A DNA stretch of 64,000 bases from an uncultured Spirochaetaceae bacterium (lineage in GTDB: Bacteria; Spirochaetota; Spirochaetia; SZUA-6; DRHE01), in assembly GCA_964390045.1 (NCBI GenBank), contig CAYMGP010000001.1, positions 28,748 to 92,747 of the forward strand. Direction: 5' to 3'. A program made the position numbers and the translations under genes. Below are positions 18,821-40,133 of the stretch, piece by piece; positions within the stretch are counted from its first letter, which is position 1; every line of letters begins with the position of its first letter. A model generated the notes under the pieces. It worked only from the letters and a program-made list of their open reading frames with translations. It ran no database searches and was not told the origin of the DNA.

Positions 18821-18841
18821 TCCTCAATCTGTTGGATCGAA

Positions 18842-19708
18842 TCAATACTTCAAATACGAAAGGGACTGCCGTGTCTTCTTGAGCTTATCCCAAGACGGCG
18901 ATCCCTGTCGTAAGCTAATCGAAACGAACAGGGTTTCAATAATCGCCAGCTGCACAATCCGAGTGACCAGCGCGTCTGTTAAATAATTCATCTCTTCGGT
19001 GACCGTAGTAATACACACGTCAGCGATGCTTCCCAAGGGGCTGTTGGCGAAACCTGTCAGTGCAATCACTTTTGCAGGAGGACGGGCGTTTTCCACGGGA
19101 ATTACCACATCTTTGCTTTCTCCCGAATAGGAGATACAGAAAATAACATCACCTTCTCGCGGATCAGAAAGAGTGACTGCATTTATATGGGAATCCATGC
19201 AGAAGTAGCAGGGCAATCCGATCCTTGTGAACTTGAAAAAGGCATCATATGCGATGGCCCCGGAGGATGCGTATCCGAGGAAGATAATTCGCTTGGCTCC
19301 TTCGATCAGTTCGACCGCTCTCTGCAGGGTTTCATCTTTTACAGCCACCAGATTCTCATGGAGCGTCTGCACTGCTCCATGAAAAATCTTTTTCTTGATA
19401 TCTTTGATCTCGTCCTGCACGGTGATGTCTTCGTAGGTATGATAAAAGGAGGTTCCGGCCAACTCCGTGGCCAAAGTTACCTTGAAGTCGTGATATCCCG
19501 AAAAACCGAGAGTTTTATAAAACTTCACGATAGAGGATTCGCTGCGAACTCCCGTTTGTCCGGCCAGTTGGGTAATCGACATCTTGATCACATCGTATGG
19601 GCTGCCGATCACGTATTTGGCAATCCGTCGTTGAAGAGGCGTCATATTGACTGACTTCCGCCGAATGACGTTCAATACAGGCACCGCTTCCAAGGAGTTG
19701 ACTACCAT
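18842..19708 (-). CDS. MurR/RpiR-family transcriptional regulator (HTH + SIS domain)
   Basis: 288 aa. N-terminal RpiR-type HTH (TPLQRRIAKYVIGSPYDVIKMSITQLAGQTGVRSESSIVKF) and a C-terminal SIS phosphosugar-binding domain (IIFLGYASSGAIA, FCISYSGESKD). Confidence 0.85.
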   Translation of the reverse strand: MVVNSLEAVPVLNVIRRKSVNMTPLQRRIAKYVIGSPYDVIKMSITQLAGQTGVRSESSIVKFYKTLGFSGYHDFKVTLATELAGTSFYHTYEDITVQDEIKDIKKKIFHGAVQTLHENLVAVKDETLQRAVELIEGAKRIIFLGYASSGAIAYDAFFKFTRIGLPCYFCMDSHINAVTLSDPREGDVIFCISYSGESKDVVIPVENARPPAKVIALTGFANSPLGSIADVCITTVTEEMNYLTDALVTRIVQLAIIETLFVSISLRQGSPSWDKLKKTRQSLSYLKY

Positions 19709-19977
19709 AATCGATTCACCCAGAAATAGTAAAAAATTAAAAAAATAATTTTGTTAATTTTAGCGGAATAAACCCTCTTTGTCAAGAAAAATTTTTGTAT
19801 TTGTCAGCTTAACAGTATTCTATGCTTCTTGTCGCGACTTCTCCCACCGGGAATAAGGGGTGACAAACTACGGTCTTTCGGGTGTTGCATCAATGGGTGA
19901 CAGATATCTAACAATGAACGTGATTTTCAAAGGTATGCTATAATTATGGTTTAAGCAATTTTTGAAGGAGGAAGCGA

Positions 19978-20253
19978 ATGACGGTAAAAGAAGAAAAATT
20001 GGAAAAAGCAAGGAAAATCGCACTGAAAAAGATGGATTTCATCCGCCACTTCTTGATCTACATCGTGGTCATGGCCGTCCTGGCGGTCATCAACAACACC
20101 ACCTGGTCGGGATATCAGTGGTGGTTGTGGCCGGCTCTCGGTTGGGGAATCGGGGTGGTGGCTCATTTCCTCAGCGCATTCATCTATCAGGGCGGCAGTC
20201 TCGAAAAACGGCTGGTCGAGCGGGAACTGGAGAAGATGAAAGATGAGGAGTAA
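19978..20253 (+). CDS. 2TM domain-containing membrane protein
   Basis: 91 aa. GGAGG RBS. Matches the 2TM-family consensus (FIRHFLIYIVVMAVLAVIN ... WWLWPALGWGIGVVAHF). Confidence 0.65.
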   Translation: MTVKEEKLEKARKIALKKMDFIRHFLIYIVVMAVLAVINNTTWSGYQWWLWPALGWGIGVVAHFLSAFIYQGGSLEKRLVERELEKMKDEE

Positions 20254-21139
20254 GAGGACCTGGATCGATATCCTTGCTCCCGTATTCGGGGTGCTGACCG
20301 TTGTCCTGGTCGTGTATTCCCTTGTGCATCTTCTCTGGCTCGAACCGTTCTACCGCGGGGAGAGCTATGGTCTGTCCCGGGGCGAGCGGCGGGGCTTTGA
20401 TGTTGGACCTGGTTGGCAAAGTCAGGAGGCGAGGGAGCGTTTCGAGGGCGCATTCAGCGATCTGGAGATTAAAAACATTTCAGGCCCCGTCAACATAGAG
20501 GGTTGGAACCAGGATTCCGTCGAAGTTCACTACATCAAAAAGGCGCGTAGCGCCAAGTACCTGGAAGAGTTCGAGATTGAGATCGAAGAGCGGGGCAATA
20601 CTCTCTTCGTCCGTCCCCGGTACCGCAAGATTCCCGGATCTCCCTTCGGGTCTGTGTCCTTCGACGTGAAAGTGCCGGCTTCCATAAAAGAGATCACCGC
20701 TAGCAACGTTTCCGGAACAATTAATCTCGAAAACCTGGCAGCCTCCGTCGATCAGGTGCTGGAAACGGTTTCCGGACGGATCTCGACTGAGCTCTCGGGT
20801 AACTTGCGGGCAAAATCGGTCAGCGGCTCGATAAGCTTCGCTTCCACGGGCCGCCTCCTCGATATCCGTTCCACCTCGGGCAGGATTCGCGGAGAAATAC
20901 TCGCTCTGGACCCGAGCGGCTCCGTTGAAATCGAGACCATATCCGGGGGTGTCGATCTGCAAGCCTTCCCCGGACTGGATGCATCGCTGCGCCTTCAGTC
21001 TGTGAGCGGCTCGATCTCCTGCGACTTTCCCGTTCAGATCAGGGAGCAGAAACGAAACCGCCTCGACGGGGATATCGGAAAGGGTTCGGTCCCCTTCCGG
21101 GTGCAAACGGTCAGCGGCCGCATCCATCTGCACGAGTGA
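20243..21139 (+). CDS. DUF4097-family protein (LiaG-like putative beta-helical envelope protein)
   Basis: 298 aa. N-terminal TM segment, then degenerate SG(S/R)I repeats (VSGSISFAS, TSGRIRGE, ISGGVDLQ, VSGSISCD, VSGRIHLH) typical of DUF4097. Overlaps the 2TM gene by 11 bp. Confidence 0.55.
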   Translation: MRSKRTWIDILAPVFGVLTVVLVVYSLVHLLWLEPFYRGESYGLSRGERRGFDVGPGWQSQEARERFEGAFSDLEIKNISGPVNIEGWNQDSVEVHYIKKARSAKYLEEFEIEIEERGNTLFVRPRYRKIPGSPFGSVSFDVKVPASIKEITASNVSGTINLENLAASVDQVLETVSGRISTELSGNLRAKSVSGSISFASTGRLLDIRSTSGRIRGEILALDPSGSVEIETISGGVDLQAFPGLDASLRLQSVSGSISCDFPVQIREQKRNRLDGDIGKGSVPFRVQTVSGRIHLHE

Positions 21140-21346
21140 CTCCGCACCGGTGTAGGTTCGCCAGAAGTAAGGATTCGTCCATTTTTTCCCGTAGGTGAGC
21201 GTTTTTTCTGAGTTTTCCGTCGCTGAGCGCTTATTCCGCTAATATATATTCTTTTCATTCGCAGGGCACATCGCGGGTAGATCGGCAGAATCTTAGCACA
21301 TCAACGTGGATCTGGGGAATCTGTTGCTTCGGACGAGAAATTTTGC

Positions 21347-21649
21347 TTATTGTCCTGTCATTACGATCGTATAATCTATAGAGTAACCTTCATAACTTTC
21401 AACGACAAAATATCCCTTGTCTCCCGCAGTTGTATCCATCGTATACGTAAGGGATGATGAACCACCGCCTATCCAGAAATAGTTGCCGCCATATTTATCA
21501 TAGAACCCGAGATCGAGATCTCCTGAAGGAATCCAATCCATATCAAATTCTATGCTGCTGGCGGTGCCGGCATATCCGATATAATAGTCCTCATCTCCAG
21601 CTCCGACGGTACCTTCAATCGTGATTACACAGCCCGGAGCGGATCGCAT
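21347..21649 (-). CDS. orphan 100-aa ORF resembling a bacterial pre-peptidase C-terminal (PPC) domain; possibly a gene remnant
   Basis: No signal peptide. The sequence (DLDLGFYDKYGG..., YTMDTTAGDKGYFVVESYEGYSIDYTIV) follows the PPC-domain pattern (D.DL.LYD ... GtYyi.V.gy.g.g.Y.l). It is isolated between convergent operons. Confidence 0.3.
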   Translation of the reverse strand: MRSAPGCVITIEGTVGAGDEDYYIGYAGTASSIEFDMDWIPSGDLDLGFYDKYGGNYFWIGGGSSSLTYTMDTTAGDKGYFVVESYEGYSIDYTIVMTGQ

Positions 21650-21741
21650 ATAGGTGTAATGGGGATTACCTCTTACGGGGGCTCACGGAGGACTCGGTAC
21701 GAGCAATCTACAACTATACTACAGCCTGTAACGTTATCCTG

Positions 21742-22761
21742 CTACAACCGCCGACACGATCCCCGATCAATGAGCTGTTGTTTTACCTTCAGTACCCGCA
21801 GGTCCTGGATGTCATCATGAAGTAGATTGATAATGAGGTCTCCTGCCAGGTTGCCCAATAGGGCGGTGTTGATGCTCAAGGTTGTAATTTGGGGGGTAAA
21901 CGTTTCGCTGTACGAGAGTGTATCCCCTGGAGCTATTATTGAAACATCTTCAGGCACGGAAAGGCCCATTTTTGAAAGCACGTAGATAATCCTGGCTGCT
22001 ATATAATCATCATGCGCGAAAATCGCGGTTGGTCGCTCTTCCGATTTGAAGGGGACGGTAAGTCTATCTTCCAATTGGATGAGATCGAGTACGTCGCTGA
22101 TCGTTATCCTGGAGCTGGGTGAAAACGGGATGTCGTGCTCGTCTACTGCTTTCTTGAATCCGATATACCGATCGGCAACAACGGTGGGGACGTCGGTGCG
22201 CTGATATTCCACATAAATAATTTTCTTGTGTCCGAGTTCGATAAGGTGCATCGCCCCTTCATAGGCTCCCTGGAAATCATCGACACAGACAGTGTGAAAC
22301 CGGTTTTGTACATTGCTGTTGTTGATGATCACCACCGGGACTCCGATCTCCTCGAGCATTTCAAAGAGGTGTTCGTTGATGTAATGAATCGTGCACACGC
22401 CTGCTGCTCCGGATGCGAGTATTTTCCGAAAAAGCTCCTCCGTATCTACCTGGAGATTGATGTCCATCAAAAGGGGAAAATAGGACGCCTTGAAGAACAC
22501 CGATTCCAGTTCGGTGATAAACGGCTTGATAAACAACCACTCGTAGTCCCAGGAAAGGTAGTTGAGAACAGCAATGTATTTAAAACTTTTTTTGCCGGAA
22601 GAAGAAGTGTACTGCTTTTTGCGGTAACCGGTTTTCCAGGCAGCTTCGAGGACTCTGCTCGTTACTTCTGCGGAAATTTTTCCTTTCCCCGAAAGCACCA
22701 TTGATGCAGTAGTTATGGATACTCCCGCTTCTTTTGCTACGGCTTTTAATGTCGGTTTCAT
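21742..22761 (-). CDS. LacI-family transcriptional regulator
   Basis: 339 aa. N-terminal LacI HTH (PTLKAVAKEAGVSITTASMVLSG) and a periplasmic-binding-protein-like sugar-binding domain. Confidence 0.85.
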   Translation of the reverse strand: MKPTLKAVAKEAGVSITTASMVLSGKGKISAEVTSRVLEAAWKTGYRKKQYTSSSGKKSFKYIAVLNYLSWDYEWLFIKPFITELESVFFKASYFPLLMDINLQVDTEELFRKILASGAAGVCTIHYINEHLFEMLEEIGVPVVIINNSNVQNRFHTVCVDDFQGAYEGAMHLIELGHKKIIYVEYQRTDVPTVVADRYIGFKKAVDEHDIPFSPSSRITISDVLDLIQLEDRLTVPFKSEERPTAIFAHDDYIAARIIYVLSKMGLSVPEDVSIIAPGDTLSYSETFTPQITTLSINTALLGNLAGDLIINLLHDDIQDLRVLKVKQQLIDRGSCRRL

Positions 22762-22886
22762 GGTGCTGTATTCAGATAGTATCGAAATATTACGATTAGT
22801 GGATTTAAATAGAAATTAAACTCATGTCGATCAGTTGTGTCAATCAGAAAAACCTCCACCGACGACATTATTTTATTGAAAAATCT

Positions 22887-22898
22887 TTGTAATTACAA
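22887..22898. promoter_or_regulatory. perfect 12-bp palindrome TTGTAATTACAA, candidate LacI-family operator
   Basis: A self-complementary sequence in the divergent lacI / ABC-operon intergenic region. It resembles LacI/CcpA-type TGTAA..TTACA operators. Confidence 0.45.
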
Positions 22899-22929
22899 TT
22901 AAAAAAACTATTAATTTCATTAAAATTCG

Positions 22930-22957
22930 TTGACAATTGACTGATTCATGCTAAAAT
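22930..22957 (+). promoter_or_regulatory. sigma-70-type promoter for the CUT1 ABC transporter operon
   Basis: TTGACA (22930-22935), 16-nt spacer, TAAAAT (22952-22957). About 35 nt upstream of the GGAGG RBS and the ATG at 22993. Confidence 0.55.
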
Positions 22958-22992
22958 ATTTAGCAAATTTATAACCAAAATAGGGAGGAGTT

Positions 22993-24306
22993 ATGAAAAA
23001 AAATGTTCTCCGTAAATTAGTACTGGTTGTTGCCCTTCTGCTGGTAGGGGGGCTGCTGTTCGCAGGCGGAACTCAGGAAGGAGCAGCAAAAGAATCAGGC
23101 GCTGCCGCACAGAAAATGGAAGGTGAGATCAAAATCGCTCACGACAACCCTGAATGGCAATCCATCTGGGAAACGTTCGGCGAAGCTTCGAAAGAAGATA
23201 TCGGTATCGAAGCAATACCTGTCGAGTTCGAGACCCAGGTGTATAAATCCAGAGTCAAAGTTGATCTCGGCTCAAACCGTGCACCGGCAGTATTCAAATG
23301 GTGGTTTGGATACCGAGCCCAGGAACTCCTAGAAGCTGATCTGATTTTAGATTTAAGCGATGTGTGGGCGGAAGTAGAAGACAATTTTGCCCCCGGATTG
23401 AAAGATGCGCTTACATTTAACGGAGTTCCATATGGTTTCCCGTTTAACACCGGATACTGGGTGTGGTACTATTCAAAGGCAGCATACGATAAGATGGGTT
23501 TTGAACCTCCTGAAACCTGGGAAGATTTCGAAGAACAACTTGCCGCATTTAAAGATGCGGGGATCAGCGGAATCGGTAATACTATTGGGAATTCAAGATG
23601 GACTTCTTTTATCGTTATTCAAGAGATCCTCTACCGACTCGACGCTCAGTTCTATAGCGATCTGGTCAACGGCAAAGCCCATTACACCGACGACACCATG
23701 GTTCAGGCGATGGAAATCTGGAAATCCTGGTTGGATAAAGGATATTTTGCGCCAATGGATGCCACTTACGTAGAAGACCTGCCCCGGATGCTCAAAGATG
23801 GAAGTCTGGCCATGGCTCCTTTCGGAGATTGGTACGGCGGAATCCTCCAGCAGCAGGGACTGAAACCAGTAGAAGACTATGGGGTTATGATTCCTCCCGC
23901 AGCTACGGAAAAAGGCAAAGGAGCTATTATTCTCGAAGTAGCTCCGCTGTGTGTTGGGAAAAATACACCTAATCCTGAACTGGCAAAAGAATGGTTGAAG
24001 TGGTATGCCAGCTCTGACAGCGCCGCGGACATTCTTTGGGGGAAGCTGCGGTTTGCATCTACGCTCAATGTGACCATGGACATGATCAAACAGGACGATC
24101 CAATTCTAGCAAAAGAATATCAGATGCTCGAGGATTATCCCACTAAATTGGTTCGCTACTGGGAAGCGACTCCGGTTGAAATCGTTGAACATGCAGTTGA
24201 TGAGTTCAATACCATGTTGGTAGAACCGGATAAGTACATGGAGATAATTGAAAGTATCGAGGCCAAGGCCAAAGAAACCTGGCCGAACTACGGTGTAGAT
24301 TACTAA
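22993..24306 (+). CDS. extracellular solute-binding protein, ABC transporter family 1 (carbohydrate)
   Basis: 437 aa. Signal peptide/lipobox-like N-terminus (MKKNVLRKLVLVVALLLVGGLLFAGG) and an SBP_bac_1 fold. Confidence 0.85.
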   Translation: MKKNVLRKLVLVVALLLVGGLLFAGGTQEGAAKESGAAAQKMEGEIKIAHDNPEWQSIWETFGEASKEDIGIEAIPVEFETQVYKSRVKVDLGSNRAPAVFKWWFGYRAQELLEADLILDLSDVWAEVEDNFAPGLKDALTFNGVPYGFPFNTGYWVWYYSKAAYDKMGFEPPETWEDFEEQLAAFKDAGISGIGNTIGNSRWTSFIVIQEILYRLDAQFYSDLVNGKAHYTDDTMVQAMEIWKSWLDKGYFAPMDATYVEDLPRMLKDGSLAMAPFGDWYGGILQQQGLKPVEDYGVMIPPAATEKGKGAIILEVAPLCVGKNTPNPELAKEWLKWYASSDSAADILWGKLRFASTLNVTMDMIKQDDPILAKEYQMLEDYPTKLVRYWEATPVEIVEHAVDEFNTMLVEPDKYMEIIESIEAKAKETWPNYGVDY

Positions 24307-24322
24307 GACACTAATAATAAAT

Positions 24323-24360
24323 GCCGGGGTAATCGTTGTTTTACCCCGGCTGTTTTTTTT
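24323..24360 (+). terminator. rho-independent terminator/attenuator after the binding-protein gene
   Basis: 10-bp stem GCCGGGGTAA / TTACCCCGGC with an 8-nt loop, followed by TGTTTTTTTT. Confidence 0.7.
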
Positions 24361-24376
24361 GTAAACCAATTGTGGT

Positions 24377-25252
24377 ATGACGAAACGAACAATCAGAAGA
24401 GATAATCCATACCTGTTCCTCATTCCGGCGCTTATCCTGGTAGCACTGGCCGAGCTGGTACCAGTGGTCTACACCACCTATCTCGGATTTATGAAGTGGG
24501 ATTTGATAAATCCGCCGGAGTGGACGGGGCTTAAGAACTATATTGAAGTATTTTCAACTCCCGAACTCTTGAATGCATTGAAGAACACTGTGTTCTGGGT
24601 GGTGGGAACCCTGATATTTCCGGTTGGCCTAGCCCTGTTTATTGCGGTGATGATTAGTCGGATACGTATGCAGACCGTTTACAAGGTGGTTTTCTTTATC
24701 CCCTCTACCCTTTCCCCAACCATAGCGGGAATTTTCTGGCAGCGGGTACTGGCCAGTCAGAAAGGGGCGATCAATGCAATTTTGGTAGCTCTCGGGATGG
24801 AATCTCAAGCTTTGATTACCAACCCGGAGATCAACACCATTTTGATGATCGGGGTGTGGACCTGGCAATTTTTGGGGCTTAATCTGATCCTGTTTTTGGT
24901 CGGGCTTGAGACCATCCCCAAAGAGCCGATTGAAGCGGCCAGGATCGATGGCGCTTCACCCTGGCAGGTATTCACTAATGTGACATTTCCCCTGCTTACA
25001 CCGATCACCCTGTTGGTAGTGGCGAACTCAATTATCAATACGGTGCGTATGTTCGATATCCCCTGGATCATAATCCAGGGGGGACCGGGGAGAGCATCAG
25101 AGACACTGGCCATATCGCTATACAGGGAATCATTTCTACTCTTTAATATGGGGTTGGGTTCTGCCATTGCAGTCATCATTTCCATTATTACCCTTGCCCT
25201 CACCTACCGATACTTGGTGTCCACCGGACAATCTCAGAAGAGGAAGAAATAG
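24377..25252 (+). CDS. carbohydrate ABC transporter permease (MalF/UgpA-like)
   Basis: 291 aa. Six TM helices and an EAA-type loop (IEAARIDGASPWQVFTNVTFP). Confidence 0.85.
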   Translation: MTKRTIRRDNPYLFLIPALILVALAELVPVVYTTYLGFMKWDLINPPEWTGLKNYIEVFSTPELLNALKNTVFWVVGTLIFPVGLALFIAVMISRIRMQTVYKVVFFIPSTLSPTIAGIFWQRVLASQKGAINAILVALGMESQALITNPEINTILMIGVWTWQFLGLNLILFLVGLETIPKEPIEAARIDGASPWQVFTNVTFPLLTPITLLVVANSIINTVRMFDIPWIIIQGGPGRASETLAISLYRESFLLFNMGLGSAIAVIISIITLALTYRYLVSTGQSQKRKK

Positions 25253-25254
25253 TC

Positions 25255-26091
25255 ATGAGCCGGACGGCATCAAAATCGATTATCTATATCGTCTTGACTA
25301 TTTTTGCTTTGGTGTGGGTGTTCCCTTTAGTTACAACCTTCTTAACGATAATAAAAAGTCCGGACAGTTTTTCAGAACTGACCTTCTGGCAGCTGCCGAA
25401 ACTGAACAGCATTCCTCAAAACTTAAGATTCAACTTTGGGTATGCTCTGGAGAAGGCAAAAATCGCCATTGACCTGTTTAACAGTCTATTTTACGCGGTT
25501 ATTGCGGGGATTGGGTCTGCCTTTATTGCGGCTCTGGCTTCTTACGCTCTTGTGTTTTTAAACCTGAAGCGGCCCCAATCCTGGTTTATCGGGATTTTTA
25601 TCGGAAATCTTTTTCCCTTTCAGATGTTCCTTATCCCCCTCTATCTCTTTCTCAATTCGTTGGGGCTCTTTGATACAAGACTGGGGCTTACCATGGTCTA
25701 TGTAGGTATCTGTGTTCCATTTGCTTTGTTTGTATATCGCAATTACGCCTACACCATTCCGCAGGAAATTTTCGATGCTTCCAAAGTTGACGGAGCCTCC
25801 ACCTGGGGCGCATTTTTCAGGATATTTCTTCCCATGTCCGTACCCGCGTTCACCGTTGTGTTTATTTTTCAATTTATCTGGACCTGGAACGATCTCCTCT
25901 TCGGCCTGGTCCTCTCCGAACGATTCCGGCCGGTCATGACCGCACTGTCCAAGCTGATCGGAAGCAGGGGAGGAGTGCCGGCGACAGTTTATATCGCCGG
26001 TGCAGTATTTGCTGCAATTCCTACGGTGATAATCCTGCTGACCCTGCAGAAGCAGTTTGTTAGAGGATTTACCATTACCGCGGAGAAATAG
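25255..26091 (+). CDS. carbohydrate ABC transporter permease (MalG/UgpE-like)
   Basis: 278 aa, with an EAA loop (FDASKVDGASTWGAFFRIFLP). Confidence 0.85.
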   Translation: MSRTASKSIIYIVLTIFALVWVFPLVTTFLTIIKSPDSFSELTFWQLPKLNSIPQNLRFNFGYALEKAKIAIDLFNSLFYAVIAGIGSAFIAALASYALVFLNLKRPQSWFIGIFIGNLFPFQMFLIPLYLFLNSLGLFDTRLGLTMVYVGICVPFALFVYRNYAYTIPQEIFDASKVDGASTWGAFFRIFLPMSVPAFTVVFIFQFIWTWNDLLFGLVLSERFRPVMTALSKLIGSRGGVPATVYIAGAVFAAIPTVIILLTLQKQFVRGFTITAEK

Positions 26092-26133: not shown

Positions 26134-27366
26134 TTGACAAGCCAGCAACGTGTAACAGCGGCAGTTGATCATCGTGAACCGGACCAGGTGTCGATAGATT
26201 TCGGCGGACACCGTAGCAGCGGTATTATGGCTTTAGCCTACAAAAAATTGCGTGAGTATCTCGATTTTCCAAGAAAACAGATAAAAATATATGACATGAT
26301 CCAGCAGCTGGCAATCGTCGATGCGGATGTGCTCGAGCGGTTCGGAGTTGACACCATCGAGATGGGCCGTGGTTTTGCCTTGGATGATAAGGATTGGAAG
26401 GAGTGGACGATGCCGGACGGCACCGAGGTACTTATCCCCTCCTGGGTGGACGTCCTAAAAGAGAACAACAGTTGGATTGTCAAAGCGCCCTCCGGTGTGA
26501 ATAGTGGTATTCAACGCGAAGGGATGATTTATTTCGACCAAATTTACTGGCCCTATAAAGAGGCAGTTCCGGATGACCTCTCCGAACTTCCCGATGCATT
26601 GGCCGATGTCATGTGGTCGGTGCCTACACCCCCCCATTTGGGGCAGACGAGTATCGAAGAACTGACTGAGGGGGCCAAGAAACTGAGAGAGTCTACGGAT
26701 CGATATATCATTTTTCTATTCGGAGGCAACCTCCTTGAAATATCGAGCTATCTCTGCAGCATACCTGAGTTTATGATGCTCATGGCCGGTGAGCCTGAAA
26801 GAACCCACCGATTGTTGGATGCATTGGTAGAGTTCCACAAAAAAAATATAGACACATTTATTCCCGCAGTAGCACCCTATATTGATAACGTCCTCTTCGG
26901 GGATGATCTGGGAATGCAATCCGGACCGCTGATATCCCCCGACATGTACCGGGAATACTTCAAACCGAGACACGAAGAACTGTGGAAATATGCGAAAAAG
27001 GTAAGCGGGAAAACCGTGCAGCTTCACTCCTGCGGCAGTTTACGGCTGCTTCTGGATCAATTGATTGATGCGGGGCTTGATGCAGTTAATCCGGTTCAGA
27101 TAAGCTCTGCCGGGATGGATGCAGCGGAGTTGAAACAGGAGTTTGGAGATAGGCTGTGTCTGTGGGGCGGTGGCTGTGATACGCAGCATGTTCTTCCCAA
27201 CGGAACTGCTGAACAGGTCAGAACCCACGTGTTGGAACAGTGCGAGATTCTTCAACCAGGTGGCGGATTTGTATTTCAGCAGGTGCATAACATCATGGCC
27301 AATGTTCCGCCTGAGAATATCGTGGCTATGTTTGATGCGGTCGCTGAGTTCAACGGGAAGAAATAA
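26134..27366 (+). CDS. uroporphyrinogen decarboxylase (URO-D)-family protein (MtaA/CmuA-like methyltransferase fold)
   Basis: 410 aa. URO-D-like C-terminal region (GDDLGMQSGPLISPDMYREYFKP, LHSCGS, LQPGGGFVFQQVHNIMANVPPENIVAMFDA). It is the last gene of the sugar ABC operon. Confidence 0.65.
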   Translation: MTSQQRVTAAVDHREPDQVSIDFGGHRSSGIMALAYKKLREYLDFPRKQIKIYDMIQQLAIVDADVLERFGVDTIEMGRGFALDDKDWKEWTMPDGTEVLIPSWVDVLKENNSWIVKAPSGVNSGIQREGMIYFDQIYWPYKEAVPDDLSELPDALADVMWSVPTPPHLGQTSIEELTEGAKKLRESTDRYIIFLFGGNLLEISSYLCSIPEFMMLMAGEPERTHRLLDALVEFHKKNIDTFIPAVAPYIDNVLFGDDLGMQSGPLISPDMYREYFKPRHEELWKYAKKVSGKTVQLHSCGSLRLLLDQLIDAGLDAVNPVQISSAGMDAAELKQEFGDRLCLWGGGCDTQHVLPNGTAEQVRTHVLEQCEILQPGGGFVFQQVHNIMANVPPENIVAMFDAVAEFNGKK

Positions 27367-31889: not shown

Positions 31890-33128
31890 TTAAAAGAGGT
31901 ACATTGGATAGGAGTCGGGGTTTTTGCCGAAGAGCGTGATCTCGTCTACCTGTTTTATCTTGTCGCCCAAACAGAGGGCGAAAAGACAGCGCTCGATACC
32001 GAGACCTCCGCCGAAGGTCTCCGGAAACAGGGGTCGGCCCTCCTCGTCTTTCTGGTAAGCGGCCAGCAGAAAGGGTCCGTAACCGCCGAGCTCGTCTATA
32101 TTTTCGATCCTGTCCATGTCGATCTGCGGTCTGGCCGCGAGTATCTTGTTGTCGATCAGCCTCTCCACGATGGCTTCGTACAGCCACTCCCTCAAGCCGC
32201 CGGAGAGAACCTCGTAAGCCGGGCCGAATGAGTTGTCCCTACGCTGAAGGCTCTGCGCGCAGAGGTCGTAATTGTACACCATATCCGAGCTGAACTCGGA
32301 AAGAGGGATCTTGCCGCCGTCTGCCTTCAGATACGGATAGATCAGATCATAGTTCTCACGCAGCAGGCCTGTGATCCAGAAGAAGTGGCCTTTAACCGTC
32401 TTTCCCAGGGGCTGCTCGATCGCCTTGGAACCAACCTTGTTCAAGGCCTCATCCCGACGGAAACGGGGGAAGGGTGTCTTGGGGACCTTGAGAGCAACTC
32501 CGAGGGCTTCGAGATTCTCTGCATTGCGGTCGGCGACCGCCTCCATAGCTACGACGATGAGGCGTTCGAAAAAACTCAGGGCCTGCTCGTGATCCTCTTG
32601 CAGGATTTTCTTCACCTTTTCCGTACTGTGCAGATAGGTTTCCAGATCCACGCCCCGGTTGCGCCGCGCCTCGATATCCATTTGGGAAAAATCGATCAGG
32701 TACTTGTTTCTCTGGACCCGAAAGGGGCTTTCCATCTCCAGACGTATGTTCGGGGAGTCTACGAAGATCCCTTTTATCTTGGGATTAAACAGAGAGAGCA
32801 TCTTGCAGTAGATCATCGAGTGGGTCGTCATGTAGATCTGGCCCTTGTAGCGGATCGAGGGGGTATGCTCAACGTCGTGGGCTAAAGGATCGGTGACAGG
32901 GCTCAGGGAAATCCGCTCGATGTTGAACAATCCTTCCGAGGCCAGGTGAAGCTGCAGGGCATTGACCAAGGTGGTGCGGATGGCCAGGGCGTGGTAGAGA
33001 TTGTCGCCCAGCCACTTCTCAATGTAGTCTTTGCGGATAAACTCCCCGAGAGAGCTGCCGCTCTCAGTGAGGGCCGCCTGGTAGTTGAACAAGCTCTGAC
33101 CGACCTGCTCGCCGATGGATTCATGCAT
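31890..33128 (-). CDS. class II aminoacyl-tRNA synthetase-like catalytic-core protein (AsnA/AspRS-paralog type) lacking an anticodon-binding domain
   Basis: 412 aa. Motif-3-like FGGGLGIERCLFALCLGDKIKQVDEITLFGKNP (compare GGGIGIDRLVMLL of AspRS/AsnRS/LysRS-type enzymes). Motif-2-like FRVQRNKYLIDFSQMDIE. No N-terminal OB fold. Confidence 0.55.
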   Translation of the reverse strand: MHESIGEQVGQSLFNYQAALTESGSSLGEFIRKDYIEKWLGDNLYHALAIRTTLVNALQLHLASEGLFNIERISLSPVTDPLAHDVEHTPSIRYKGQIYMTTHSMIYCKMLSLFNPKIKGIFVDSPNIRLEMESPFRVQRNKYLIDFSQMDIEARRNRGVDLETYLHSTEKVKKILQEDHEQALSFFERLIVVAMEAVADRNAENLEALGVALKVPKTPFPRFRRDEALNKVGSKAIEQPLGKTVKGHFFWITGLLRENYDLIYPYLKADGGKIPLSEFSSDMVYNYDLCAQSLQRRDNSFGPAYEVLSGGLREWLYEAIVERLIDNKILAARPQIDMDRIENIDELGGYGPFLLAAYQKDEEGRPLFPETFGGGLGIERCLFALCLGDKIKQVDEITLFGKNPDSYPMYLF

Positions 33129-33144
33129 GATAGGGACTCCTCTA

Positions 33145-34110
33145 TTATGTGTATATTTCCTCGCTCAACTCGGCTACTCTCAGACCCGTCTCGCCGGGAA
33201 CCGGCGGTTCCCTGTTTTGCAGGAACGCCTGAGTAACCGCTTCGATGTAGGGCAAATGAAGGTTGGGGTGCGGCGGGTGTTCCTCTGAGCGCCGGCCCTC
33301 TGCGTTGATGACCGTCATCGCTCCGTCGTTCAACACGGGAACATGGATCGAGCCTGTGCTCCCGTAGATATCAAAGCTGTCCTGGGGCTCTTCAATGGCC
33401 CGACTGACCGCCAGCAATCCCCGGGCTTCGTTCTCGAACTCGAATACGGCCACCGTGGTATCCTCAACATCCCAGTCTGTAAGAATTCGTTCGCTGCTGC
33501 CCCAAGCCTTGGTAACGTTCCCGAGAACATTCAGAAAAACTTCTATGCGATGACATCCGAAATCCATCAGAGGTCCACCGCCTCCAAGTTCCTTGCGCGT
33601 TATCCAGTATTTGGGATCTTCCGGCTCCGGGCGAAAGCTTTCGAAGGCGCGGATCTCGGCCAGTACGGGTTTGCCGATTTCACCAGCGGCGATCGTCTCT
33701 TTGATTCTCTCGATCAGCGGATAGAAACGTCGATAGTAGGCGATGCTCAACCGCACGCCGTTACCCCTGCAGGCATCGATCATCCGCCTGCACTCCCGGG
33801 CATCCAGGGCCATGGGCTTCTCGCAGAGCACGTGCTTGCCGCAGGCAGCCGCGGAAATGGCCTGCCGGGCGTGAAGATGTGGGGGAGTGGCCACGTAGAC
33901 CGCGTCTATCTCTTTATCCTCGAGCAGGTCCTGCCAATCTCCGTACCAACGCCGGGCTCCGAACTCTTTTGCAAAGGCTTCGGCCAAATCACGGCGGGCA
34001 CGGCTGACGGCGACCAGCTCGCAGCTCTCCAGATCCCTGAGAGCGGGTGCTATCCGCTTTCGCGCGATATCCCCGCAACCAATGAGCCCCCAGCGTAATT
34101 CTTTCCTCAT
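33145..34110 (-). CDS. Gfo/Idh/MocA-family NAD(P)-dependent oxidoreductase
   Basis: 321 aa. Rossmann N-terminus LRWGLIGCGDIARKRIAPAL and a EKP motif (HVLCEKPMA). Confidence 0.85.
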   Translation of the reverse strand: MRKELRWGLIGCGDIARKRIAPALRDLESCELVAVSRARRDLAEAFAKEFGARRWYGDWQDLLEDKEIDAVYVATPPHLHARQAISAAACGKHVLCEKPMALDARECRRMIDACRGNGVRLSIAYYRRFYPLIERIKETIAAGEIGKPVLAEIRAFESFRPEPEDPKYWITRKELGGGGPLMDFGCHRIEVFLNVLGNVTKAWGSSERILTDWDVEDTTVAVFEFENEARGLLAVSRAIEEPQDSFDIYGSTGSIHVPVLNDGAMTVINAEGRRSEEHPPHPNLHLPYIEAVTQAFLQNREPPVPGETGLRVAELSEEIYT

Positions 34111-34168: not shown

Positions 34169-34393
34169 TCAATCAAAGTCAGAGAGCAGGGCGGGCTGCC
34201 TTACAGGGCTCGCAGCGACCCCGGGCAGCTTGTCTGTTACCGGACAGTGCTCAGGTATCATTTCCAGCACAATGTCCAGCTCCTCTCGGCATATCATTCC
34301 GCAGCGTAGAAGAAGCTGTAGAATCTTCAGGGTGGAATCGGGATAACCTCCGCCGGCTGAAAGCTTTCGAACAGATGCACCCGGTTTTTGCAT
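34169..34393 (-). CDS. small hypothetical protein (74 aa), uncertain
   Basis: An ORF with no recognisable domain. It sits in a 340-bp gap between the URO-D-like and Gfo/Idh/MocA genes. Its coding status is unproven. Confidence 0.2.
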   Translation of the reverse strand: MQKPGASVRKLSAGGGYPDSTLKILQLLLRCGMICREELDIVLEMIPEHCPVTDKLPGVAASPVRQPALLSDFD

Positions 34394-34452: not shown

Positions 34453-35448
34453 TCAACCCTTTTTCAGAGGATAGCGGCCGCAGGAGCGGGCGGTTTCGAT
34501 CATTACACGAAAGTTCTCCGGCCGTACCGCGGAGGTGATGGAGTTGCCGGAGGAAAGGATGTGACCTCCGCCGGGAGAGACGGCTGCAATCAGCTCTCGA
34601 GTCGCGTGCCTGACTTCCTGCTCGCTGCCGCGGCAGAGCAAGTCGACATCCACATTGCCCACCACACAGACCCGGTCCCCGGCGCGGCTCTTTACCTCTT
34701 TGAGATCCATGCCGGCTCCCGGCTCCAGAGGTCCGATGCCGTCGATGCCCGTGCTTACGATATCTTCGAGAATCGCCAGAATATTCCCGTCTGTGTGTTT
34801 GACGCAGTAGGCCCCCGCCGCCTTGACGTTCCGAACCGCTTCCGCAAGCTCGGGCAGCACGAACTCCCTGAAAAGAGCGGGCGACATCAGGGTGCCCTCC
34901 TTGTGGGCGTAGTCATCACTGAGGATGACCACATCGACGCCCTCCTCGATCGCCAGGCGATGAAGCTCCCGGCTGTATCCGCCGACGATTCCAGCCAGTG
35001 CCCTGGCGAACTCCGGTTCGAGCAGGTAGCTTTCCAGGAGCCTCTCCATTCCGCAGAGGTACCAGCAGGCGGCAAAATCGTTCCGGGCTACGAGGACCAC
35101 GGCGCGCTTTCCCTTGAAACGGCGAACCACCTTGCGCACAGCCTTGAGTACCGGGTCCCGCCGGGGATCCGGCACGGGGAAGTCGGCCAGCTTCTCAACC
35201 CCGAGTTCCCGGCCGATCGGATGCCCGTAGGGCAGCGGCAGTATCTCCTCGGTGATGCGCCTGCGCACTCCCCAGATATCTTTGTAGCTCTTTATCACCT
35301 TGAGCAGCAGGGGTTTCAATCCGAGCAGGTACATGACTTGATTAACAGAAACCCCCTCCAGATCGAAGCGCTCGATCATGTCGAAATACCCGGAGCAGCC
35401 CAGACCGCCGATAACCTTCCAGTCGATGGCCATCTCCATCAACGGCAC
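34453..35448 (-). CDS. URO-D-family protein (methylcobamide:CoM methyltransferase MtaA-like fold), second copy
   Basis: 331 aa. C-terminal URO-D-like signature (VVGNVDVDLL, GGGHILSSGNSITSAVRPENFRVMIETAR). Confidence 0.65.
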   Translation of the reverse strand: MPLMEMAIDWKVIGGLGCSGYFDMIERFDLEGVSVNQVMYLLGLKPLLLKVIKSYKDIWGVRRRITEEILPLPYGHPIGRELGVEKLADFPVPDPRRDPVLKAVRKVVRRFKGKRAVVLVARNDFAACWYLCGMERLLESYLLEPEFARALAGIVGGYSRELHRLAIEEGVDVVILSDDYAHKEGTLMSPALFREFVLPELAEAVRNVKAAGAYCVKHTDGNILAILEDIVSTGIDGIGPLEPGAGMDLKEVKSRAGDRVCVVGNVDVDLLCRGSEQEVRHATRELIAAVSPGGGHILSSGNSITSAVRPENFRVMIETARSCGRYPLKKG

Positions 35449-35519
35449 CCTGTCCGGAGTACCTCGTTCGAGGGCTGTTAAGATTCTCTCTCGCGGTGTA
35501 ATGGCTTTCTCCTTAAAAA

Positions 35520-36797
35520 CTAAGCTTGCTCTCTGTAAAAGGCCGCGGCCATAAAGCTGACCAGAGAGTCGTTCGCATCATCCACTGCCTGCTCGTAGCC
35601 GAGCAGGCAAGAGCTCTCGATATCGAGGACACGCAGCAGACAATAAACAGCAGGCACCCCGCATACATTACGACGGTTTCCCTGCTCCACGATACCGCGA
35701 AGAAAATCCTCTGCCTTTCCCTCGAGTATCGAGTCGATCATGGCCCTGTCCTCCGTTTCGACCTGTTTGCACAGTGCGGGGCTCACGGTTACATTCTGCC
35801 CGAAGCGCTGCCCCATGTGGCTGAGGTCCACCCCCGCGATGCAGCAGACCTCGGATCCGTTCTCGGCCAGAGCAGCCTTCAGAGCGCCGATGAACTCCTC
35901 GACTTCGGGATTCTGCTGCAGCGAATCTTCAGAATGGGCGCTCTGCTGCTCGACTCCCGACGGCAGGGAGCAGAGAATGGGAACGATGCGCAGTCTCTCC
36001 TCATCACGGTACAGGTAGCGGAGAAACAGCGTCTGGAACTCGATGGAGTGCTCGCTGCGGTGGACGAACTCATCCTCGTAGAAATCGCTTTGACAGCGGC
36101 TCGAGATAGCCTCGAGGAAATTCCTGTCTGCAGGAACAACGCCGAGAGGAGTTTCAAAATCCTTGTCCGTCAGCACGAAGCTGCGGCGCGTTGGCGCGTG
36201 GGAAATACCGAGGATCACGAATGTTCGAGCGCTGCACTCCCGGGCCAGCTCAGCGTAGCTCAGGGCAAAACAAGCTCCGCCTCTGTTCAGATCTATATGA
36301 GGAGCAATCAAGCCGCACAGACTGCCCTTGGTTTTTTTTGTTTTTTGCGCCCGGGGTCGGAGGTCTGACTGCGACTCCGGCTCCGGGACAGCGGCAAACA
36401 GGGCATCCAATTGCTGCCTGCACTCCTCCGCTCCAGCCTGGTAGGACAACCCTGCGTGAGAGGCCGGGCGAACCGATGCAGCCCGGAACTCTTCGATCGC
36501 TTTCCTTCTCTGCTCTCGAAAGCGGTCCGAGTCGAGAAACAGGGCTCCGTCCAGCTGCTCTACGATCTGTTTGACCTTGTCGCTGAACACCAGATCGCCG
36601 AAGCGGCGGGTATACTCGGCTTGAATGTCGAGAATCGAATGCCTGCCGTCGAACAGGGAGACGACGAAGAACACGGGTCGGGGAAGCAGAAGCAACTTGT
36701 CGGTGAAGCCCTGAGGATCCCTGAGACAGATCATGTTGTCCCGGGTGGGAATCGCTTCTACCTGGCGGAGTTTCGGATATTCCATTCCAGGCATCAC
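35520..36797 (-). CDS. MEMO1-family (AmmeMemoRadiSam system protein B-like) protein with about 110-aa N-terminal extension
   Basis: 425 aa. MEMO motifs RPASHAGLSYQAG, GLIAPHIDLNRGG, ILGISH, GVDLSHMG. The N-terminal extension (LLLLPRPVFFVVSLFDGRHSILDIQAEYTRRFGDLVFSDKVKQIVEQLDGALFL) resembles a PqqD/RRE-like peptide-binding domain. That resemblance is tentative. Confidence 0.65.
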   Translation of the reverse strand: MMPGMEYPKLRQVEAIPTRDNMICLRDPQGFTDKLLLLPRPVFFVVSLFDGRHSILDIQAEYTRRFGDLVFSDKVKQIVEQLDGALFLDSDRFREQRRKAIEEFRAASVRPASHAGLSYQAGAEECRQQLDALFAAVPEPESQSDLRPRAQKTKKTKGSLCGLIAPHIDLNRGGACFALSYAELARECSARTFVILGISHAPTRRSFVLTDKDFETPLGVVPADRNFLEAISSRCQSDFYEDEFVHRSEHSIEFQTLFLRYLYRDEERLRIVPILCSLPSGVEQQSAHSEDSLQQNPEVEEFIGALKAALAENGSEVCCIAGVDLSHMGQRFGQNVTVSPALCKQVETEDRAMIDSILEGKAEDFLRGIVEQGNRRNVCGVPAVYCLLRVLDIESSCLLGYEQAVDDANDSLVSFMAAAFYREQA

Positions 36798-36951
36798 AAT
36801 ATTCCGAAGCTCAAGCCTTTGACAAGATTAAAAACTGTTCGCTCGGTAATATTTGCTGCCGCAACACGATCCGGGCGGCGACCTGCGCTCGCGCCCTTGT
36901 AGCGCTTAAAGCTTTCATGCTACTAGTTGAGCTCACGGATACGCTAATAAA

Positions 36952-39810
36952 ATGAAACCTGAAGAGAACTTCGCCTGGCACACGCTGCAGGTCTCGACGG
37001 TCCTCGCTCGCTTCGGCTGCAACCCGAGCGGGGGGTTGAGCTCGCAACAGGCCGCGGCCAGGCTGCAGGAGGAAGGACCGAACGAGCTGGTAGAGAAAGG
37101 GGCCAAGTCCCCTCTACATATACTGGCCGAACAGTTTGCTTCCCTCATGGTGCTGCTGCTTATTGGGGCGGCTGTGGTGTCAGGTATCGTGCTCGGAGAA
37201 TGGGAGGACGCTGCGGTTATCCTGGTGATCGTAGCGCTCAATGCTCTCCTGGGATTCTTGCAGGAGCTTCGAGCTGAACGGGCTCTGGCCGCTCTCAAGA
37301 GCCTGGCCACGCCCAAGGTCCGGGTCTTAAGGGATTCCCGGATTCAGGAAGTTGATTCCCGACAGCTGGTCAGAGGAGACATCGTTTTGGTGGAGGCGGG
37401 CAATCTTGTTCCGGCAGATTGCCGCATCCTGGAAAGCGCCAATCTCAGAGTCCAGGAATCTGCCTTGACCGGCGAGGCTGTGGCCGTGGAGAAGAATCCG
37501 GAGGTCCTCGAGGAAAACGAGCTTCCCCTCGGGGATCGACGCAACATGCTGTACATGGGCACCATTGTCACCTACGGCCGGGCGAGCGCCGTGGTTACCG
37601 CTACCGGTATGGCCAGCGAGCTGGGTACCATCGCTACCCTTCTTCAGGAAGCAAAACCCGAGCGAACCGTGCTGCAGAAAAAGCTCGCCTCCTTGAGCAT
37701 GGTTCTCGTGTTCTCCGCTCTGGCCTTGATTGCAGTCGTAGCTCTGGAGGGCTGGCTGCTCCAGGGCCAAAATCTCAAAGAGCTGTTCCTGACAGCGGTG
37801 AGTATGGCCGTGGCCGCTATTCCCGAAGGACTGCCCGCAGTGGTAACCATTGCCCTGGCCCTCGGAGCGCAGAGAATGCTGCGCCGCAGGGCTTTGATAC
37901 GCAAGCTTCCCGCCGTGGAGTCCCTGGGCTCCGTGACCGTGATCTGTTCGGACAAAACGGGTACGCTCACTCAGAACAGGATGACCGTTACCGTCCTCGA
38001 TCTGCACGACCGGCGCATCGATCTCGGCCGAGCGAGCAAAGCTGCAGCCCTGAGCGAACAGGCGGCGGACGACAGCTCGATCTGGCTGCTCCTGACAGCC
38101 GCCGCCCTGTGCAATGATGCGGTGCTCAAATCCGAAAGCCCCGGACCTGTCGTTGGAACACAGGGCAACGAAGAGTTCGAAACCCTTGGGGATCCCACCG
38201 AAGGCGCCCTGGTGGAAGCGGCAGCCAGAGCCGGTTTGATCAAACCCGCTCTCGAGAAACTGCTTCCCCGCAGCGGCGAGCTTCCCTTCGACTCGGAACG
38301 CAAGCGCATGAGCACAGCCCACCGTCTTGTCAGGCCGGATTCTGCGCCTGCGACTGCAGACCGGCAGGCTACAGCCGAATCCGTGCAGCTGCCGCGGGAC
38401 TTCGAGCATTGGCTCGAGGAAAAGGGAGCGGATACCTTGTATTTTTCCAAGGGAGCTGCCGACAGCCTGCTCGAAGTCTGCACCTCTGTATGGCGACCCT
38501 CAGGGCCGGAGCCTTTGGATGAAAGCGGGCGGGCAGTTATTGCACGCTCCAACGAAGAGCTTGCCGCGGAGGGAATCCGCGTTCTGGGGGTAGCGTTCGA
38601 GGCGGCCGGGCTCGAAGATGGCCCGCAGAGTGCATCAGGCCAACAAAGCGAGCAAAGCGAGCAGTGGGAGAAGGATCTCGTTTTTGTCGGGCTTATCGGA
38701 ATGCTCGATCCCCTGCGTACAGAGGTCAAAGAAGCTGTGGATACCTGCCGCCGGGCCGGGATACGCCCGGTGATGATCACGGGCGATCATCCCCTGATCG
38801 CCCGAACCATCGGCAGGGAGCTGGGTTTGGACAACAGCGAGCGCTTCCTCACGGGTAGAGACCTGGCCGGAATGGAAACAGAGGAGCTCGCTGGTGAAGT
38901 CGAGAATACGAGCATCTACGCCAGGGTCGCTCCGGAGCACAAGCTCAAGATCGTCGATGCCCTGCAGGAACGGGGCCACATCGTGGCCATGACGGGAGAC
39001 GGCGTCAACGACGCCCCGGCCCTCAAATCGGCAGATATCGGTGTTGCCATGGGTATTACAGGCACCGATGTATCCAAAGAGGCGGCCGCCGTGGTACTCC
39101 AGGACGACAACTTTGCCACTATCGTGTCCGCGGTGGAGGAAGGGCGCATCATATTCGACAACATCCTGCGCTTCGTCCGTTATATCCTGGCCAGCAATTG
39201 GGCGGAGATCGTGGTCATGCTGACCGCTCCGCTGATAGGCCTGCCGATTCCCCTGTTTCCTGTTCAGATCCTCTGGATGAACCTGGTTACCGACGGGCTG
39301 CCCGCCCTGGCTCTCGGTGTAGAGCCCGGAGAGATCGATGTCATGAACCGCCCGCCCCGAGAGCCGCGCCGGCCCATTCTCACGATCGACAGCGGCGTAC
39401 ATATTCTCTGGGTCGGCCTGCTGGCCGCCGCCCTGGCTCTCGGAATCGGAGCCAGGCAATTCAGCCCGGCTCTGTCTTCCGACCCCGCGGCCTGGAGAAC
39501 CATGCTGTTTACCACTCTCGTGCTGTCCCAGCTTACCCTGGCAATGGCGGAACGTTCACGGCGAAGCTCGCTGTGGCAGATCGGTTTGTTTTCCAACAAA
39601 TACATGATTGCGGCCCTGGCGATCACCTTCGTTCTCCAGATGGGCGTGATTTACCTCCCCTTTCTCCAGGGATTCTTCGAAACCACGCCCCTTACCTTCG
39701 CTCAGCTCTGTCTCTGCCTGGCCCTCAGCGGGGTTGTTTTGGTGGCCGTAGAGACTGAAAAACTCATCCAGCGGGCCGCGCGAACGAAAGCGAAATCCCG
39801 CAGAAGGTAG
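36952..39810 (+). CDS. cation-transporting P-type ATPase (Ca2+/Mg2+-type, P2 subfamily)
   Basis: 952 aa. DKTGTLT phosphorylation site, TGDHPLIA and [10 protein letters not shown] motifs, and ten predicted TM helices. Confidence 0.9.
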
Positions 39811-39818
39811 ATCCCATC

Positions 39819-40133
39819 ATGGCACAGGTAACAGTCGATGCAGGAATCTGCGGGTGTACAACCACGATCGAGGCCGTATCTTCGGACATGCGCAAGGTGC
39901 GGATCTCCTTTGATTCCGACTGTCCCCACGTGATCAAGGCAAAGGAAGAGTTCGTTTCGCTCGACGCCCGCGCCGAGTTATTTAAAAAGCCTCACGAAAC
40001 CGTGATCTATACCGTGCTGTCGAAATACCTTCCCCATACAGCCTGCCCCCTGTACTCGGGATTTCTCAAGGCAGTGGAAGTCGCGGCGGGATTGGCCTCA
40101 CCCAAAAACGCCTCGATCGAAATCTCGCGCTAG
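39819..40133 (+). CDS. small Cys-containing hypothetical protein immediately downstream of the P-type ATPase
   Basis: 104 aa, 8 bp after the ATPase stop. Cys at GICGC, DCPH and TACP. No family recognised. Confidence 0.4.
   Translation: MAQVTVDAGICGCTTTIEAVSSDMRKVRISFDSDCPHVIKAKEEFVSLDARAELFKKPHETVIYTVLSKYLPHTACPLYSGFLKAVEVAAGLASPKNASIEISR

Follow-up and report, generated by a model that had tools for sequence, protein, structure and literature searches.

A gene in a 64,000-nucleotide stretch of DNA from an uncultured Spirochaetaceae bacterium (contig CAYMGP010000001.1, positions 28,748 to 92,747; we call this whole stretch the window) encodes a protein, RRE-Memo, that almost certainly joins two domains: an N-terminal winged helix resembling the recognition elements (RREs) of peptides that are made on the ribosome and modified after translation (RiPPs), and a Memo domain. 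We propose that RRE-Memo is an enzyme of the Memo_RRE class, in which the winged helix guides a peptide or protein to the metal site of the Memo domain, and that a small conserved open reading frame (ORF) nearby encodes the candidate client in this lineage. We put the probability of this reading at roughly 55%. Conservation of Memo proteins extends from bacteria to humans, and human MEMO1 has been tied to cell motility, cancer, and metal and redox homeostasis; to our knowledge, neither a catalytic reaction nor a physiological substrate has been defined for any member of the family. A Memo enzyme that has its own putative peptide-docking domain and, in one lineage, is strictly co-located with a candidate peptide makes the question of the Memo substrate testable.

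The initial annotation described a MEMO1-family protein with an N-terminal extension of about 110 residues. This description holds, as the listed ORF has 425 amino acids and the match to the Memo profile hidden Markov model (HMM) begins at residue 112. It also considered that an internal start, at MICLRD or further downstream, might remove the extension. A search against 5.8 billion proteins gave homologues of 405–445 amino acids in more than 120 clusters, which covered 98% of the query at 50–65% identity, so the fusion is conserved in relatives, as had been suggested as a check, and the extension is real. (Most of the full-length clusters come from metagenome-assembled genomes of Spirochaetota.) In the alignment, the N-terminal region is among the best-conserved parts of the protein, with P8, R11, A15, R26, D27, P28, D50, G51, H53, Q59, L82, and D83 invariant. 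An internal start is excluded because a conserved block (residues 5–21) lies upstream of MICLRD.

The start codon that we prefer is not the listed one. The homologues open with M(D/E)YPKLR (MEYPKLR or MDYPKLR), which makes ATG 36785 the most likely true start and gives a protein of 421 amino acids; one database member of the identical cluster has this length. (Residue numbers in this report refer to the 425-residue ORF that begins at GTG 36797.) Neither GTG 36797 nor ATG 36794 is preceded by a visible Shine-Dalgarno sequence, and none is seen ahead of ATG 36785 either. A scan for promoter consensus sequences found a promoter-like element that ends about 12 nucleotides before ATG 36785, and the mRNA may be leaderless or have a very short leader. 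Rfam gave no matches over the whole window, and therefore we see no riboswitch upstream of the operon.

The evidence that the extension is an RRE comes from its predicted structure. An AlphaFold2 (AF2) model of the first 116 residues, built with 42 homologues as the alignment, had a mean predicted local distance difference test score (pLDDT) of 87.3 and a predicted template modelling score (pTM) of 0.73. In this model, three strands (residues ~14–17, 22–26, and 35–39) are followed by three helices (40–47, 55–66, and 72–84) and then by one further helix. The strand-first β3-α3 topology that is predicted here is the defining topology of RREs, and the top structural matches of the domain are bona fide RREs: TfuB1 with its leader peptide (6jx3, match score 10.6), TbiB1 with its leader (5v1u, 9.9), the RRE of the radical SAM enzyme TigE (8vpo, 9.7), PqqD (5sxy, 8.7), and the RRE of PbtF (8t19, 7.6). 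Thus the proposal in the initial annotation that the extension is RRE- or PqqD-like came through the structure prediction that it had named as a check. At the level of sequence the likeness is faint: identity to discrete RREs (TfuB1 6jx3 and TbiB1 5v1u; PqqD 5sxy and 3g2b) is 13–18%, with no significant HMM match, and searches of PDB sequences with profiles of the full-length protein and of the N-terminal domain returned only MEMO1 and noise, with no RRE. The window's domain also differs from these discrete RREs in being fused to an enzyme and in being unusually conserved across phyla. We lean slightly towards a domain that docks a peptide or protein. Assignment of secondary structure with DSSP on both AF2 models placed a connector helix between the two domains, in which F104 is conserved in at least 95% of the sequences. 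In the AF2 models of the N-terminal domain, DSSP also reported a two-residue β-bridge at residues 9–10, in the conserved tail YPKLR ahead of strand 1.

The second domain is a Memo domain with an apparently complete metal site. Pfam Memo (PF01875) matches residues 112–417 with E = 9.3e-40 and 137 bits (the cut-off is 27), covering positions 2–267 of the 269 in the profile. TIGR04336 (AmmeMemoRadiSam protein B) matches residues 110–417 with 110 bits against a cut-off of 26, and the NCBIfam equivalog for "MEMO1 family protein" (NF001987) gives only 91.6 bits against a cut-off of 295. Alignment to human MEMO1 shows that the residues of the metal site are kept (H167 in APHID, H200 in GISH, D324 and H327 in DLSH, and C379 in NVCG), and all five are invariant columns in the alignment of the family. 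That the metal site of the fusion protein is intact is strongly supported by these alignments. The AF2 model of the full-length protein (pLDDT 88, pTM 0.87) has MEMO1 (3bcz) as its best fold match in the PDB, with a TM-score of 0.79 normalised by target length and a Foldseek E-value of 3e-16; aminophenol and LigB-type extradiol dioxygenases come next. Because the pTM of the two-domain model is 0.87, the RRE and Memo domains are expected to be in a fixed arrangement. RRE-Memo thus has the catalytic fold and the His/His/Asp-His/Cys metal site of human MEMO1 (3bcz, 7kq8, 7l5c), at an identity of ~21–22%, but MEMO1 has no N-terminal RRE and lacks two extra loops of the window's protein (residues 143–154 and 282–288), which are variable and modelled with low confidence.

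The initial annotation suggested that this might be a novel fusion. It is not, because the Memo_RRE class was published in 2025: in a paper on RRE-Finder, "Memo-like proteins (PF01875)" are named among RRE fusions that are "unprecedented in RiPPs", and Table S1 of that paper lists a dedicated HMM, RREFam044 or "Memo_RRE" (Bregman et al., mSystems, November 2025, PMC12710340). That class came from structure-based mining and has the same RRE fold fused to a Memo-like PF01875 domain; we place the window's protein in it from its architecture and predicted fold. The treatment of Memo_RRE in PMC12710340 consists of the HMM and one sentence, and the precursor-like ORF of the window's clade is mentioned in neither. 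Our literature search found no paper that assigns a substrate, gene context, or reaction to the class. What is new here is a clade-restricted candidate substrate, corrected models for two genes (RRE-Memo and its neighbour in the URO-D family), and evidence that databases mis-name the subfamily.

The class is widespread. When we compared a profile of the N-terminal domain to 1.84 billion representatives clustered at 50% identity, 1328 proteins matched at E ≤ 1e-3, and 589 of them reached E ≤ 1e-10. In the 150 best matches, the domain is N-terminal and the proteins are mostly ~400–445 amino acids long or shorter, and the three shorter ones with a Pfam match are truncated Memo proteins. A 986-residue protein (P0165) matches the domain with E = 1.6e-29 and continues for ~880 residues with only weak, sub-threshold matches to tetratricopeptide repeats and no Memo match; it may represent another kind of fusion or a chimera of gene calling. 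A match in a 1903-residue protein is a repeat artefact. In a scan of one genome per species, the fusion was present in at least 120 GTDB species from many anaerobic phyla, including Spirochaetota, Thermodesulfobacteriota (Syntrophales), Scalindua, Latescibacterota, Dadabacteria, Methylomirabilis, Poribacteria, and Sumerlaeota.

The candidate client is a small ORF that lies between the URO-D-fold gene and the Gfo/Idh/MocA gene, two genes downstream of RRE-Memo (Table 1). The initial annotation called for a search for precursor peptides and radical SAM genes but missed this ORF; the search turned up this one candidate and, in a regular-expression scan of limited sensitivity, no radical SAM motif in an ORF of at least 220 residues in the window. 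Among 12 distinct loci of the Spirochaetaceae subclade (60–75% identity), the small ORF follows RRE-Memo in all 11 loci that could be assessed. It is always downstream of RRE-Memo or of the URO-D-fold gene (in the loci L009 and L087 it directly follows Memo with no URO-D-fold gene between them), and it is called as a gene in all contigs. Its N-terminal block is rich in invariant residues (L(K/R)ILQLLLRCGMICxEELDIVLEM; in the window, LRILQLLLRCGM...LEMM). This block is followed by a variable spacer of 25–35 residues that is rich in proline, serine, and alanine, and then by a conserved C-terminus (RQSTLVFEFD, with LLSDFD in the window) whose last residue is aspartate in ~20 of 25 sequences and asparagine in one. 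The ORF has no Pfam match. It is nevertheless a real coding gene under purifying selection, as judged from its codon changes: across 10 species, changes in the conserved block fall mainly at the third codon position (445, versus 193 and 114 at the other positions), and 309 codon differences are synonymous versus 246 that are non-synonymous.

The layout of the small ORF, with an N-terminal block, a spacer, and a short C-terminal core, looks like that of a precursor peptide, and the locus holds no other precursor-like candidate. MftA and PqqA are precursors of this kind, which pair a recognition sequence with a short, conserved core at the C-terminus, and the mycofactocin (MftA/B/C) and pyrroloquinoline quinone (PqqA/D/E) systems likewise combine a small precursor, an RRE that hands the precursor to a redox enzyme, and nearby oxidoreductases. 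This is only an analogy, and those systems depend on radical SAM enzymes and on a dedicated peptidase; the window's locus has neither. We regard the small ORF as a tentative client of the N-terminal domain, and think it less likely than not that it is the client.

How might such an enzyme work? We propose that the groove of the RRE between β3 (residues 35–39) and α3 (residues 72–84) would take up a stretch of a peptide or protein chain in the form of an additional β-strand, and that the distal part of the captured chain would be held in the Memo metal site and undergo a metal-dependent modification. If the small ORF is the client, then its N-terminal 26 residues would serve for recognition, its spacer would be the tether, and its C-terminal ...FEFD would be the modified core; the spacer would be long enough to bridge the RRE groove and the metal site. 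The modification is unlikely to be an oxygen-dependent (extradiol) cleavage of a ring because the organisms are anaerobes. Binding of a peptide at a Memo active site has a precedent in human MEMO1, which binds a phosphopeptide from ErbB2 there (Qiu et al., 2008, as cited in PMC7694686).

A broader version of this proposal is that the whole block (RRE-Memo, sometimes the URO-D-fold protein, the peptide of 64–75 residues, the Gfo/Idh/MocA protein, and the AsnA-like protein) makes up a new peptide-modification pathway, either RiPP-like or cofactor-like, in which the fused RRE would bind the N-terminal block of the peptide and Memo would modify its ...FEFD end. We consider this version doubtful. 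If it is true, the block would supply, for the first time, a genetically defined substrate of a Memo-family protein. An analysis of the PCAD-Memo superfamily by Burroughs and colleagues in 2019 reportedly tied the contexts of Memo genes to the modification of nucleotide bases or isoprenoids, and not of peptides.

Table 1. Coordinates of the features discussed in the text, numbered from the first nucleotide of the window.
Feature	Coordinates	Strand	Remarks
RRE-Memo fusion gene	35520..36785	-	probable start ATG 36785; stop codon 35522-35520; listed ORF 35520..36797, 425 amino acids, from GTG 36797
Promoter-like element, TTGTCA-16 nt-AATATT	36798..36825	-	consensus scan only
Predicted RRE/PqqD-like winged-helix domain	36534..36785	-	N-terminal; residues 5-88 of the 425-residue ORF
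Predicted connector helix between RRE and Memo	36480..36527	-	residues 91-106
Memo domain (PCAD/LigB superfamily)	35532..36470	-	residues 110-422; Pfam and NCBIfam, alignment to MEMO1, Foldseek
URO-D-fold gene	34453..35502	-	PF01208, E = 7.3e-35; start probably ATT
Small conserved ORF, candidate client or precursor peptide	34169..34393	-	74 amino acids here, 64 in most relatives (range 64-75)
Gfo/Idh/MocA NAD(P)-dependent oxidoreductase	33145..34110	-	Pfam and NCBIfam; 58 nt after the small ORF
AsnA-like protein, class II aminoacyl-tRNA-synthetase fold	31890..33128	-	412 amino acids; last gene of the co-directional block

Several observations weigh against a peptide-guiding RRE with the small ORF as its client. 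The fold of the N-terminal domain is a predicted structure, and Pfam found nothing at E ≤ 10, the PqqD model included, in residues 1–110 or in the N-terminal 120 residues alone. Thus the profile search that the initial annotation asked for was negative for the window's own sequence, although there were weak matches to RRE families among 22 homologous N-terminal domains (PaaA-like_N in 6 of 22, with a best E-value of 0.0038; HTH_47 in 3 of 22; and PqqD in 1 of 22, with E = 0.21). For RREFam044 itself, the listed share of true positives at a cut-off of 20 is 72% (PMC12710340). As for the client, its family comprises just 22 clusters in the database of 5.8 billion proteins, and when six-frame ORFs of all loci were searched with an HMM of the small ORF, every relative belonged to the Spirochaetaceae subclade; nor did we find an equivalent precursor-like gene in the other clades that carry the fusion. 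No leader peptidase or dedicated exporter is present among the annotated genes within ~8 kb on either side, and the adjacent transporter is a P-type cation ATPase. Across phyla, no neighbouring gene is conserved: in 80 GTDB loci, whose ORFs we called and clustered within 10 kb on either side of the gene, we saw clade-specific synteny only. (The greedy ORF caller was crude, and in the window it chose an antisense ORF over the URO-D-fold gene, so key genes were re-checked with tblastn.) Finally, in 70 sequences from across phyla, identity was higher in the N-terminal domain than in the Memo core for 84% of sequence pairs, with means of 56.6% and 51.5%, though the figure for the N-terminal domain is inflated because these loci were seeded on the motif FDGxHS(I/V)(L/I)DI. 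RREs that are specific to a leader do not usually show such conservation, which points to a universal ligand or to a role in the structure.

This last point is the main argument for a different explanation, that an ancient Memo subfamily carries the N-terminal domain as a constitutive part, which binds a conserved protein that is encoded elsewhere or else shapes or caps the active site for a small molecule, and that the neighbouring genes are unrelated. We consider this quite possible, albeit at less than even odds. It would account for the invariant polar residues (R11, D27, D50, H53, and Q59), for the rigid packing of the domains that the pTM of 0.87 indicates, for the near-exclusive occurrence of the domain at the N-terminus of Memo proteins of ~400–445 residues, and for gene contexts that differ by clade and have a housekeeping flavour (Lon; UPF0047, metallophosphatase, and HAD; M19 dipeptidase). 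Also, RRE-like winged helices can be directed at cellular proteins: those of the protein lysine methyltransferases (PKMTs) and the JmjC ribosomal oxygenases recognise such proteins, although these enzymes (Rickettsia PKMT2, 5doo; M. tuberculosis Rv2067c, 8hkr; MINA53 and NO66) have different catalytic domains, methyltransferase or JmjC, and we detected no sequence relationship between their winged helices and the domain described here. However, the highest structural matches of the domain are leader-binding RREs, and the window's clade shows strict linkage between the fusion and a small gene that resembles a precursor. Moreover, much of the conserved FDGxHSxLDI block is not a new site but corresponds to the DG-turn hallmark of PqqD-type RREs (PF05402). 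On balance we retain the peptide-guiding RRE as the better explanation.

Two other explanations are less probable. The protein could be component B of a classical AmmeMemoRadiSam system, with AMMECR1 and the PflA-like radical SAM protein encoded elsewhere and with the N-terminal domain as an add-on. Its score against TIGR04336 is far above the cut-off of that family, and many of its homologues carry the name in NCBI and JGI databases. In one of 77 loci (L028) an AMMECR1 motif is adjacent, and in two (L023 and L070) a PflA-like radical SAM motif (CNxxCxxCQN) lies within 10 kb. But neither motif was found in the other 74 of the 77 loci, within 10 kb on either side, and in the window there is no AMMECR1 motif (LRGCIG) and no ORF of at least 220 residues with CxxxCxxC; these were scans with regular expressions, which have limited sensitivity. 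Pfam annotation of a contig with identical proteins also gave no AMMECR1 and no radical SAM protein in ~16 kb around the gene, and the same is true of the other Pfam-annotated contigs. So the statement in the initial annotation that no such partner is adjacent stands for the window. The weak score against NF001987, far below its cut-off, argues against this explanation as well, and the TIGR04336 match starts at residue 110, which leaves the RRE extension outside the model. The system is defined by a neighbourhood of three genes, with AMMECR1 and a radical SAM enzyme beside Memo, and this neighbourhood is missing here and in nearly all of the related loci. We therefore think that a classical AmmeMemoRadiSam component is improbable, and since AMMECR1 and radical SAM genes very seldom occur in the vicinity, gene context does not back "AmmeMemoRadiSam system protein B" as the database name of this subfamily. 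The last explanation, that the extension comes from an over-extended ORF (with the real start at MICLRD or later) or that it is an ordinary DNA-binding winged helix and the protein is a regulator, has next to no probability. The lack of a Shine-Dalgarno sequence at the two upstream starts and the winged-helix class of the fold would fit it, but an artefact of the start codon is refuted by the conservation of the N-terminus across clusters of homologues.

The clade-specific contexts are as follows. In the order Syntrophales, two ABC genes and two conserved small ORFs are followed by Lon, the fusion, a convergent ORF of 79 residues, and a transglutaminase-like gene. The small ORFs lie ~3–4 kb upstream of the fusion (in L027, L034, L042, L045, and others); one encodes 70 residues with a repeated DLNxLFP motif and the other is a double zinc-ribbon of 78 residues. 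This arrangement of ABC exporter, small ORFs, lon, and fusion may be order-level synteny. Elsewhere in Desulfobacterota, UPF0047, a metallophosphatase, and a HAD hydrolase come after the fusion, and in Dadabacteria an M19 dipeptidase does.

In the Spirochaetaceae subclade, the gene order is a divergent P-type cation ATPase (11 of 12 loci) and then RRE-Memo, the URO-D-fold gene (9 of 12), the small ORF, the Gfo/Idh/MocA gene (9 of 12), and, nearby, the AsnA-like gene (8 of 12). The URO-D-fold, Gfo/Idh/MocA, and AsnA-like proteins are lineage-specific neighbours; they may serve to tailor the product, or their genes may belong to unrelated metabolism. The AsnA-like protein scores 115 bits against the asparagine synthetase A cut-off of 309 (NF005054) and matches PF00152 with E = 1.8e-6. 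It is the most conserved gene of the block (78–82% identical across the clade). On the other side of RRE-Memo, the divergent plus-strand genes (36952–40133) encode the P-type cation ATPase (952 amino acids) and then a cysteine-rich DUF6951 protein (104 amino acids), which is also found in several of the clade's loci.

A URO-D-family gene does follow RRE-Memo, as the initial annotation reported, but its listed start is probably wrong. This start (GTG 35448, 71 nucleotides after the RRE-Memo ORF) lies too far into the gene, since ITPRERILTALERG..DRVP (ITPRERI...), the N-terminus that is conserved, begins at ATT 35502–35500, which is 6 nucleotides after the Shine-Dalgarno sequence AAGGAG. In orthologues (L006, L007, and L010–L014), the equivalent position after GGAGG holds ATT (one), ATC (five), or ATG (one), and the DNA is identical in three independent metagenome contigs. 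On the strength of these comparisons, the gene probably starts at the non-canonical ATT. Many database entries are 325–328 residues long, from an internal ATG (MEM or MEL); because the start appears to be AUU or AUC, these are probably ~24 residues short. Our analysis thus corrects annotation in two places, the short URO-D entries and the AmmeMemoRadiSam naming of the subfamily.

The signature residues of the URO-D-fold protein indicate that it is not a canonical HemE or MtaA. Compared to MtaA (4ay7), HICG is replaced by HTDG and PGCG by SGNS, so that the zinc ligands are lost (H-x-C becomes H-T-D, and C becomes N). Compared to HemE (1j93), LGHG is replaced by SGNS, and the histidine of GHG is lost. 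Scores against all NCBIfam subfamily models are also far below their cut-offs (87.8 versus 235 and 43.6 versus 303).

The initial annotation implied a functional link between this protein and RRE-Memo, for which the case is weak. The gene accompanies the fusion in only the one Spirochaetaceae subclade and is absent from every other clade that carries the fusion. Furthermore, orthologues that are 55–60% identical are present in unrelated contexts without Memo, so the adjacency is lineage-specific and probably not diagnostic. (One of these loci, with a TRAP transporter, a BNR protein, a DHDPS-family lyase, and a Gfo/Idh/MocA gene, looks like sugar-acid catabolism.) For these reasons, and because the signature residues of MtaA and HemE are missing, we rejected the URO-D-fold protein as a dedicated partner of RRE-Memo, which it probably is not, and it seems quite unlikely that the two act in the same pathway.

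The window contains a second URO-D-family gene (26134–27366, plus strand), whose product of 410 amino acids is 28% identical to the first and keeps an MtaA-like H-S-C-G. A LacI regulator and an ABC transporter of the sugar type (22993–26091) immediately precede this distant paralogue. The G+C content of the window dips to 0.45–0.48 at 18000–26000, as compared to 0.55–0.61 elsewhere, in a region that spans an RpiR regulator, a DUF4097 protein, the LacI regulator, and the sugar ABC transporter.

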